A stretch of 64,000 nucleotides of DNA from Pseudomonadota bacterium (GTDB lineage: Bacteria > Bdellovibrionota > UBA1018 > CAIMNF01), in contig JAIYBN010000004.1 in NCBI GenBank assembly GCA_027488515.1, positions 177,252 through 241,251 of the forward strand. The letters are read 5' to 3'. Under the pieces are notes generated by a model. That model saw only the letters and a program-made list of their open reading frames with translations, was not told the DNA's origin and made no database searches. This document shows, one piece after another, positions 15,499-20,415 of the stretch. A program made the position numbers and the translations under genes. Position 1 is the first letter of the stretch, and every line of letters begins with the position of its first letter.

Positions 15499-16398
15499 TC
15501 ATTTTTTACCCCGGGGGTGGTATTGGTCGATCACTTGACGAAGGGCCTCCGGAACGATGTGTGTGTAAATCTGGGTGGTTTGCAGGTCCGCATGTCCGAG
15601 AAGGCTTTGGAGGGAGCGGAGGTTCATCCCGGCCCGCAACAAATCACTCGCAAAGGTATGACGAAGCATGTGGGGATGGAGATTCACGGGCACGCCGCCC
15701 AGTGTCGCAAGGCGTTTGAGCGTTTTCCAGAACGCCTGACGCGTGAGAGGGAGTCCCGTCTGTCCGAGGAACAATCGATCGCTTCTCGGTTCGAAGAGCG
15801 GACGTCCCCGTTCGAGGTACTCGAGCACCAGTTCTCCTGCAACGGGTGCGAACGGGATCACGCGCTCCTTGTTGCGTTTACCGAGAACGCGGATCAGTCC
15901 GGCTTCAGTGTCGATCCGGGTCCGCTCGAGTCCGATCAGTTCGGAGACCCGGACTCCTGTGGCGTACAGGAGGTACACCATGGCACGGTCCCGGATCCGA
16001 AGTGCGTCACCGATCGCCCCCTGGTACGGGATCCCGCGATCTACCGAGAGGAGGAGTGCCGCCACCGCACGCTCGTCGAGAGCCTTCGGAAGCTTCTTGG
16101 GGAGTGTCGGGCTACCGATGAAGAGTGTGGGATCCTCGGAAACGAGGTCTTCCCTCAGGAGGAATTTGTAGAATTGTTTCAGAGCCGAGATCTTCCTTGC
16201 GATCGAGGCGGCCTTCTGGTTCCGGTCACGGAGTATCGCGAGCCACTGTTCGATATCGGCGTCTTTCCTGGAGATCAAAGGAGTCCCGGAAGATCCGGCG
16301 AACTGGACCAAGTCGCGCCCGTAGGAGTCGAGGGTGTGCGAAGAGGCACCTTTGTCGATCCGAAGGTGGCGGATGAACATCTCGACCAGAGGATCCAT
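15499..16398 (-). CDS. tyrosine recombinase XerC/XerD family
   Basis: Phage-integrase fold. R...HxxR...Y catalytic residues (LRHTFASDLLRAGMNLRSLQSLLGHADLQTTQIYTH). 299 aa, the size of XerC/D. Start lies 6 nt after the Snf2 stop. Confidence 0.8.
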   Translation of the reverse strand: MDPLVEMFIRHLRIDKGASSHTLDSYGRDLVQFAGSSGTPLISRKDADIEQWLAILRDRNQKAASIARKISALKQFYKFLLREDLVSEDPTLFIGSPTLPKKLPKALDERAVAALLLSVDRGIPYQGAIGDALRIRDRAMVYLLYATGVRVSELIGLERTRIDTEAGLIRVLGKRNKERVIPFAPVAGELVLEYLERGRPLFEPRSDRLFLGQTGLPLTRQAFWKTLKRLATLGGVPVNLHPHMLRHTFASDLLRAGMNLRSLQSLLGHADLQTTQIYTHIVPEALRQVIDQYHPRGKK

Positions 16399-16404
16399 AT
16401 CCGG

Positions 16405-19400: not shown

Positions 19401-20415
19401 GCACTTCCGAATGGGAGAAGTAGAGGTTCAGCTTGCCCCGTTTGGCCAGTCGGGAGGCGGCCTCGGTGATCGAAAGCAAGATCGAGTCGAGGCGGTCTTC
19501 TTTGGCTTTGTCGGAAAGAACCGGGTCACTCACTGAATCGGACTGTCTCGGAAAGAACCGGTTCGAGGTGAGATCCTGGAACGTGGGGCTGATACTGGAT
19601 CCAACCGGGTGCAGCTCGCCCGGAACCAGTGTGCAGAACTTGTGGTAGAGGATGTCCGAAACCGGGAGTCGCGTTCCATCGGAAAACAGGTAAACGAGAC
19701 TCTTCTTCTTGGCGAGCATCCAGTCCTGGGACTTCTGGAAGAGTGCGTAAGATCCGCCTTGTGCATCGAGAGGGGAGATCCACCTCGGATGAGGAAGGTC
19801 GGAGTGGGAATAAAACTGGATTGCCGGCCTCGGCAAAAGACTTTCGCGGTAAGGGTGGCTCTCCGGCAGGGCGATCCACTCACCCGTGGGAAGATCCTCA
19901 CCTTTCAAGCGTTGTTCGGGAAGGCACAGGACCAAGCCGGTGAAGGTGACGCCGAGATCGGGATGGGTCAGGTATTCACGATCCCGATGCAAAATCGTCT
20001 GGGGCTGGGGAGCCGAGGAACTCTTGAGCTTCTGGAATTCTTCCTCGTAGGTCTGGACGATCCGGAGGATTTCCGGATCCACCCGGTTCAGCTCGTATTG
20101 TTTCCGGGCTAGAGTCATGGTGACCCACGCCGCGATCGCCTGGTGTTTGCAAAGCTTGGCCGATTGGGCCATGTAGCAGTTGCACTCGGAGTACAGGGGT
20201 TGCGAAGAGGTCGTCATGTCGATTCGGGCGGAACAATCCTCATCGAGTGCGAATTGGATCTGGAATCCTCTCGATCCGACCACCGCCACTTCCAGTCCGC
20301 GGAATCCCCCTTCGCGGAGGTATTGGAGGCCTCGCTCCAGAGCGGACGGGTCCAGCTTCTTGGTCAACGCGTCGGGACCAAGGCGTTTCAGATCCTGGAG
20401 TGAGGGAAGTTGCAT
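16405..20415 (-). CDS. SWIM zinc-finger + SNF2-family (Rad54/RapA-like) helicase, 1336 aa
   Basis: N-terminal SWIM CxC...CxH ([20 protein letters not shown]). SNF2_N motifs [15 protein letters not shown] and DEAQNLK. Helicase-C motifs [32 protein letters not shown]. Confidence 0.85.
   Translation of the reverse strand: [1336 protein letters not shown]

Follow-up and report, generated by a model that had tools for sequence, protein, structure and literature searches.

Xer recombination systems are driven by a double-stranded DNA (dsDNA) translocase, FtsK. To our knowledge, a motor role in remodelling the terminus or Xer complexes has so far been known only for FtsK-type motors, and bacterial Snf2 ATPases that are neither RapA nor defence proteins still lack an assigned function. 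Both xerC and xerD, together with a dif site, have been reported for Bdellovibrio bacteriovorus, and FtsK and XerCD have been discussed for this organism (PMC11318664). In addition, according to Karaboja (2021), as cited in PMC11894783, XerD unloads Smc-ScpAB at the terminus of Bacillus subtilis. Here we describe a locus in which the gene for a Snf2-family ATPase directly precedes the gene for a XerD-type tyrosine recombinase, followed by a block that includes the condensin subunit genes scpA and scpB. It lies in a 64-kb stretch of contig JAIYBN010000004.1 (positions 177,252 to 241,251; hereafter the window, always meaning the whole stretch), and the bacteria that carry it, represented by metagenome-assembled genomes (MAGs) of Bdellovibrionales/Oligoflexia, form a freshwater lineage of uncultured Bdellovibrionota. 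We favour, with a probability of about 0.55, the interpretation that the genes make up a chromosomal operon passed on by vertical descent, whose motor would be co-expressed with a XerD-type recombinase and condensin subunits and, by analogy, would have a role in chromosome maintenance or segregation. In the Snf2-Xer pair we see neither a defence system nor a component of a mobile element.

One ground for this interpretation is the constancy of the neighbourhood. The initial annotation, made from the window alone, had described a 1336-residue Snf2 gene followed 6 nucleotides (nt) later by a recombinase gene, and both open reading frames (ORFs) and the junction are as it described them (Table 1); the M50 protease, the secreted protein and the trpS-scpAB genes that it placed on the same strand are likewise borne out by their ORFs, by Pfam and by a signal-peptide-like start. 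Conservation of this gene order, which had been left to comparison with related genomes, is now apparent in about 23 contigs of the lineage, drawn from genome, metagenome and assembly collections. In all of them a divergently transcribed pair, encoding a HEAT-repeat protein and a high-potential iron-sulfur protein (HiPIP), is followed on the other strand by Snf2, Xer, M50, trpS, scpA and scpB in this order, and Xer is the gene next to Snf2 in every contig that has downstream sequence, a recurrence that makes the adjacency more than chance. The same order holds in contig L021, which lies across a deep split: its TrpS is 62%, its Xer 47% and the N-terminus of its Snf2 about 32-37% identical to those of the window, and its Snf2 stop and Xer start overlap by 4 nt. 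The HiPIP and HEAT genes stand upstream of Snf2 in every lineage locus, L019 and L021 included.

Within this arrangement the junctions differ in how much they vary. In 17 of 19 loci, xer starts -4 to +18 nt from the end of Snf2; the spacer is 71 nt in one genome (L002) and about 467 nt in L028, and no terminator-like site was found between the Snf2 and xer ORFs of the window. M50 comes after Xer in all related loci across a gap of 16-1716 nt, the junction between M50 and trpS takes insertions of up to about 5 kb, and trpS, scpA and scpB are found downstream in all related loci. A fusion of Snf2 and Xer by in-frame read-through was considered and set aside: only among the closest relatives does the 6-nt spacer keep the two genes in frame, and elsewhere the spacers measure -4, 0, 1, 5 or 14 nt. 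A split Snf2 gene in L019 (5900-6020; ORFs of 672 and 663 residues) was also discounted, as the break goes back to a pair of frameshifts, located in T5/T6 runs of the poorly conserved linker (residues ~655-690), and is most likely a sequencing error.

Snf2 and xer are probably co-transcribed and translationally coupled. A putative sigma-70-type promoter, TTGAAy-17 nt-CACAAT, is found at an equal distance from the Snf2 start codon in 17 loci, with GATAAT as the -10 box in L021. Because the -10 box of the window ends only 8 nt before the Snf2 ATG, a near-leaderless mRNA is implied. Transcription from this element would thus yield a near-leaderless message beginning with Snf2, and ribosomes that end translation of Snf2 would re-initiate on xer, because stop and start lie as close as the spacers given above. 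Such coupled re-initiation would mean that motor and recombinase are made together, simultaneously with ScpA and ScpB. From what other Snf2 enzymes do, one would expect the motor to track along duplex DNA using ATP and to displace or reposition bound proteins, most likely as part of general chromosome maintenance in replication and segregation. It would be co-regulated with Xer and ScpAB and not obligatorily dependent on Xer.

The recombinase itself fits a housekeeping role. It has the Pfam domains Phage_int_SAM_1 (PF02899) and Phage_integrase (PF00589, 3e-43) and a complete catalytic set (R150, K174, H243, R246, H269 and Y278), and it passes the cut-off of the NCBIfam 'tyrosine recombinase' subfamily PRK00283 (295.5 vs 279), in agreement with the XerC/D type named in the initial annotation. 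Among the equivalog models XerD scores best, with 292.0 bits (cut-off 329.6) against 279.7 for XerC (cut-off 335.15), and the protein leans towards XerD. No second Xer is present in the 64-kb window. Xer orthologues of 45-63% identity keep the order xer-M50-trpS-scpAB across the Oligoflexia/Bdellovibrionota, and this extends to Oligoflexia that have no Snf2 gene at this place: in L020 and the P0168 contig xer-M50-trpS is kept, with Xer at 45-51% identity and, in L020, scpA-scpB as well, and mutY and amidase genes stand upstream of xer in place of Snf2. As the xer block is present without Snf2, Xer appears to be a vertically inherited housekeeping copy at the head of an older block.

Searches for the recombination site found none in the window. 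Neither the E. coli-based dif pattern nor that of B. bacteriovorus HD100 (PMC2731167) has a match in the window, and a short dif core pattern matched three times in the loci, which is about the chance expectation, with no match in the Xer-linked lineage. No dif-like site was found near the operon in any locus, nor a dif-like palindrome in the spacer between Xer and M50. The cumulative GC skew rises monotonically across the window, which places the terminus outside it.

From its sequence, the product of the first gene is predicted to be a stand-alone Snf2 dsDNA translocase with intact ATPase motifs and a motor of the SSO1653/ZorD/ISWI type. Pfam recognises SNF2-rel_dom (PF00176) at residues 869-1147 (1.5e-53, 182 bits vs a cut-off of 24.9) and Helicase_C (PF00271) at residues 1162-1272 (1.2e-18, 67.8 bits vs 23.5). 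Motifs I, II, III and VI are intact and invariant in an alignment of 19 homologues, and the whole ATPase half is near-invariant among these proteins of ~60% overall identity, indicating strong purifying selection. The best sequence match of the ATPase in the PDB is the core of Sulfolobus SSO1653 (1z63; 9e-75, residues 859-1310), followed by eukaryotic remodellers of the ISWI and INO80 types and by ZorD. In a structure model of residues 690-1336, with a mean predicted local distance difference test (pLDDT) value of 82, the best fold match is ZorD (E 8e-35, 681 columns), and ISWI, Mot1, CSB and INO80 come next (E ~1e-33 to 1e-35).

The long N-terminus is the most distinctive part of the protein. 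Residues 1-860 have no Pfam family apart from a weak SWIM signal; about 770 N-terminal residues lack any Pfam match. A Foldseek search of this region against the PDB gave no significant neighbour (E 0.06 vs ZorD). The SWIM zinc finger of the initial annotation survives as a motif, C78xC80x8C89xH91, which is invariant in 36 homologues, but not as a Pfam assignment, because the SWIM model (PF04434) has no match in the window protein even when the N-terminus is searched alone; weak matches occur in 11 of the 19 homologues. The strict motif is present in just 13 of 111 full-length family representatives, so that SWIM is no family-wide feature. When 1.84 billion representatives were searched exhaustively by HMMER with residues 1-860, no more than 136 proteins came up (E<=0.001), the majority matching residues ~690-860 alone. 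This segment, here called the pre-ATPase domain, has neither a Pfam model nor a solved structure, and it outlines a small Snf2 family of ~130 clusters among the 1.8 billion representatives, made up of proteins of 1150-1550 residues that share it. Full-length homologues, 56-97% identical, come from freshwater MAGs of Bdellovibrionales/Oligoflexia, the 97% being reached in a pond MAG (JAIXWV010000034). The superfamily and the loose architecture class of SWIM plus Snf2 are already known. The literature searched contains no description of the long N-terminus with its pre-ATPase domain or of the conserved coupling to XerD.

A sister subfamily was met alongside these proteins. Its representative in L018 (993-5183) is 52% identical to the window Snf2 from residue 690 onward, has a SEC-C motif at its start according to Pfam and contains a CxC...CxH motif of its own. 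L038, L039 and L041 encode members of the same subfamily, the Pfam scan having covered L018 only. Small leucine-rich-repeat ORFs follow the Snf2 genes of this subfamily, recognised by Pfam matches in L018 and as BLAST homologues in L038, L039 and L041, and the contigs are low in G+C (~0.40). SEC-C-like N-termini occur in about 21 family representatives.

Several observations weigh against the operon reading. About 20 distant Snf2 relatives of 35-53% identity (L018, L022-L024, the P0176 and P0310 contigs and L031-L049) are found in unrelated contexts, without Xer, M50, trpS, scpAB, HiPIP or HEAT, and they share no neighbour beyond local synteny. Since these members are never beside Xer, the core function of the family would need no Xer. 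Moreover, the block holds unrelated genes such as trpS and HiPIP, so that its conserved order is weak evidence of a shared pathway and the synteny is in part inherited. In addition, a -10-like box, GGTATA(G/C)/TGATAAGG, lies ~10 nt before the M50 start (spacer 15465-15498; the same spacer in L001-L016) and could start a second near-leaderless transcript, which, if real, would make Snf2-Xer a separate bicistronic unit. Finally, YwqA of B. subtilis, the canonical SWIM-Snf2 protein of bacteria, is called 'poorly characterized' and is discussed as an RNA-polymerase-associated Swi2/Snf2 translocase (PMC7385302). The idea of the initial annotation that the coupling hints at recombination or chromosome dynamics is thus only partly upheld: the genes are operonic and their order is conserved, but the xer block without Snf2, the Snf2 relatives without Xer and the unrelated genes in the block weaken it. 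In a different account, the window protein would be a RapA/YwqA-like factor acting on stalled RNA polymerase, to recycle or dislodge it, and its place before xer would be a historical accident of the lineage. We regard this as possible though unlikely. It would agree with the architecture class of SWIM plus Snf2 that the protein has in common with the RNA-polymerase-interacting YwqA, and with the occurrence of family members alone elsewhere, with no conserved partner, as expected of a general factor. Yet the protein is no RapA orthologue, so that neither a gene order lacking conservation nor clear orthology to RapA, the two findings by which the initial annotation would have been refuted, was observed: the RapA score is far below the cut-off and confined to part of lobe 1, and RapA structures are outside the best matches. 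The SNF2_assoc domain is likewise not detected in any of the 19 homologues and not recovered by profile comparison (figures are given with the known systems below), and the tight, long-conserved junction with xer would be left unexplained. A more specific role is suggested by that very junction, the tightest and least interrupted of the block, whose neighbouring junctions take insertions. Snf2 might be a dedicated partner translationally coupled with XerD, acting at dif/XerD sites and remodelling the nucleoprotein of the terminus; it might act on the Xer-dif synapse, activating or clearing it in an FtsK-like or FtsK-independent manner, or help XerD to strip Smc-ScpAB from the terminus. Retention of the pairing across the deep split to L021, the FtsK precedent for translocase-driven Xer recombination and the part of XerD in unloading SMC (structural maintenance of chromosomes) complexes all speak for such a partnership, and, if true, a Snf2-type translocase would occupy a role held by FtsK-type motors. 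We nevertheless consider it quite improbable, since sister Oligoflexia keep xer-M50-trpS-scpAB without Snf2, the ~20 distant relatives adjoin no Xer, a dif-like site is found neither in the window nor near the operon in any locus, and the gaps in L028 and L002 are wide.

Two further explanations carry far less weight. A defence alternative had been put forward in the initial annotation, and one may argue that the Snf2 helicase and the recombinase form an anti-phage module that acts on foreign DNA, or else belong to an integrative element whose integrase is the recombinase. In PADLOC the protein indeed matches DpdE (1e-114) and ZorD (1e-109), ZorD is the closest structure over residues 690-1336, and one distant relative, on the P0176 contig, is located among toxin-antitoxin and AbiEii genes. 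However, the PADLOC matches do not reach beyond the generic ATPase core (residues ~813-1310), and the NCBIfam equivalogs score far below their cut-offs (DpdE 44.7 vs 500; DrmD 60-71 vs 610-950; for ZorD see below). By Pfam and PADLOC, there are no ZorA/B/C, Dpd, Drm (drmA/B/C, methylase) or BREX partner genes among the neighbours. Furthermore, the Snf2 gene stays at one housekeeping location throughout a deep lineage, the G+C of the pair is that of the surrounding sequence, no tRNA adjoins it, and the recombinase is the Xer that is conserved with the scpAB block. A defence or mobile-element origin is therefore scarcely credible, and core-only PADLOC matches of ~1e-110 such as these are a likely source of false 'defence' labels, which calls for caution in defence annotation. 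Very improbable, too, is a chromatin remodeller that repositions histone-like proteins on the nucleoid. The motor is closest in sequence and fold to the nucleosome remodellers ISWI, INO80 and SNF2h and to SSO1653, and B. bacteriovorus has a major histone (Bd0055), for which the question of its chromatin remodellers has been raised (PMC11318664). On the other hand, any Snf2 core shows such similarity to remodellers, and tblastn with an approximate Bd0055 query, a weak test, found no histone gene in the window or the fetched loci.

Table 1. Coordinates of the features discussed, numbered from the first letter of the window; residue numbers refer to the Snf2 protein.
Feature	Position	Strand	Basis or details
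Snf2-family ATPase gene, 1336 residues, first cistron	16405..20415	-	ORF list, translation, Pfam
SWIM-type zinc-finger motif, residues 78-91	20143..20184	-	CxCx8CxH: C78-N-C80-x8-C89-K-H91
Lineage-specific region after SWIM, residues ~92-689 (~600 residues)	18349..20142	-	without Pfam family or solved structural relative
Conserved 'pre-ATPase' domain, residues 690-862 (~170 residues)	17830..18348	-	motifs IDWFEL-P-FFFKG, LELLALR, FYD-L
ATPase lobe 1, residues 869-1147	16975..17811	-	motif I GLGKT 894-898, motif II DEAQ 990-993, motif III TGTP 1018-1021
ATPase lobe 2 / Helicase_C, residues 1162-1272	16600..16932	-	motif VI (QxxDRxHRIGQ type) 1263-1273
Snf2-Xer junction, 6 nt, TGA-CCGGAT-ATG	16399..16404	-	read from sequence
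XerD-type tyrosine recombinase gene, 299 residues	15499..16398	-	ORF, Pfam, NCBIfam, motif positions
Putative conserved sigma-70-type promoter, TTGAAT-17 nt-CACAAT	20424..20452	-	end of -10 box 8 nt before Snf2 ATG
M50 (site-2-protease-like) membrane metalloprotease, 223 residues	14793..15464	-	Pfam PF02163; HEFGH (HExxH) and NLLPIPPLDG (NxxPxxxLDG) motifs
300-residue protein, signal-peptide-like N-terminus	13822..14724	-	translation
trpS	12790-13812	-	Pfam tRNA-synt_1b
scpA	11976-12845	-	Pfam SMC_ScpA
scpB	10564-11979	-	Pfam SMC_ScpB
HiPIP with twin-arginine translocation (TAT) signal	20461/20518-20832	+	Pfam HIPIP, TAT_signal; probable start 20518, RRNFLK TAT signal
HEAT-repeat protein, 872 residues, 4-nt overlap with HiPIP	20829-23447	+	Pfam HEAT_2
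HxlR-type regulator (low-G+C island)	1839-2267	-	
Zinc-type alcohol dehydrogenase or quinone oxidoreductase (low-G+C island)	2391-3347	+	
APCDDC-like protein (low-G+C island)	3371-4024	+	
tRNA-Met bounding the low-G+C island	4634-4710	-	

The remaining genes of the neighbourhood can be described briefly. The divergent gene that had been taken for 'HEPN-like' turns out, by Pfam, to be the pair of a TAT-signal HiPIP and a HEAT-repeat protein, separated from Snf2 by ~100 nt; the probable HiPIP start at 20518 is preceded by a Shine-Dalgarno sequence, AGGAG, at 20506-20510. Neither gene adjoins the distant Snf2 relatives. Beyond scpB lies an rluB-like pseudouridine synthase gene, so that the block reads xer-M50-trpS-scpA-scpB(-rluB). 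The ScpB of the window is unusually long, 471 residues, of which only 175-335 form the ScpB domain, and a long form (369-523 residues) is kept in relatives. What lies between M50 and trpS differs among the loci: the 300-residue protein, for which Pfam and NCBIfam searches gave no match, is found only in the closest relatives of the window, L003-L005; L001 and L014 have DUF2520, panB, panC, coaBC and a type III pantothenate kinase there (L001 15621-20018), and nothing is inserted in the other loci. Away from the operon, positions 1800-4800 of the window have a G+C of 0.33-0.42, compared with ~0.57 elsewhere, and resemble an island gained by horizontal transfer next to a tRNA gene, although no integrase was seen.

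In summary, a Snf2 motor gene holds a fixed, tight position at the head of a XerD-condensin operon across a deep split, and this provides a testable lead that points to phenotypes in chromosome segregation, dimer resolution or SMC unloading. Of the known systems, the YwqA type of B. subtilis, represented here by the Verrucomicrobia protein P0043, is similar in having an N-terminal CxCxnCxH finger, a long linker and a C-terminal Snf2 ATPase, and both it and the window Snf2 are functionally uncharacterised. The ATPase halves of P0043 and the window family are 37% identical (hhalign E 3.5e-72), but the alignment is confined to the ATPase: the N-terminus of the window Snf2 is ~250 residues longer than that of P0043, with no alignment between the two. 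The SNF2_assoc domain (PF08455) has no match in the 19 homologues at E<=1, and the comparison of the pre-ATPase domain with the SNF2_assoc region of P0043 is non-significant (hhalign E 0.085, probability 0.7%). We know of no conserved operon with Xer for YwqA-type genes.

SSO1653 of Sulfolobus solfataricus (1z63) is comparable as a prokaryotic Snf2 motor that tracks along dsDNA, but nothing in it corresponds to the 860-residue N-terminal region, and its gene lies in an unrelated context. ZorD of type I Zorya (8qy7), also a bacterial Snf2 protein with an N-terminal extension, gives the best and longest fold match, over residues 690-1336 at 26% identity; in contrast, the NCBIfam ZorD equivalog reaches only 228 bits against a cut-off of 1500, and the context of the window gene is a housekeeping one without zorA/B/C. 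RapA/HepA, a bacterial housekeeping Snf2 ATPase that removes RNA polymerase from DNA, may offer a plausible functional analogy. Its profile (PRK04914), however, has a cut-off of 576 bits, of which the window Snf2 reaches 52.4, and aligns over positions 174-382 of 959 only; RapA appears neither among the 60 best PDB sequence matches nor among the 50 best fold matches, and no RapA-type N-terminal domains were detected in the window Snf2. By these scores and domain comparisons, the window Snf2 is not RapA, ZorD, DpdE or DrmD. As for XerC/XerD-dif, the recombinase of the window has the domain architecture and the catalytic residues of XerD and is linked to scpA/scpB. Unlike in the XerCD-FtsK systems, the motor that adjoins xer here is a Snf2 ATPase rather than FtsK.

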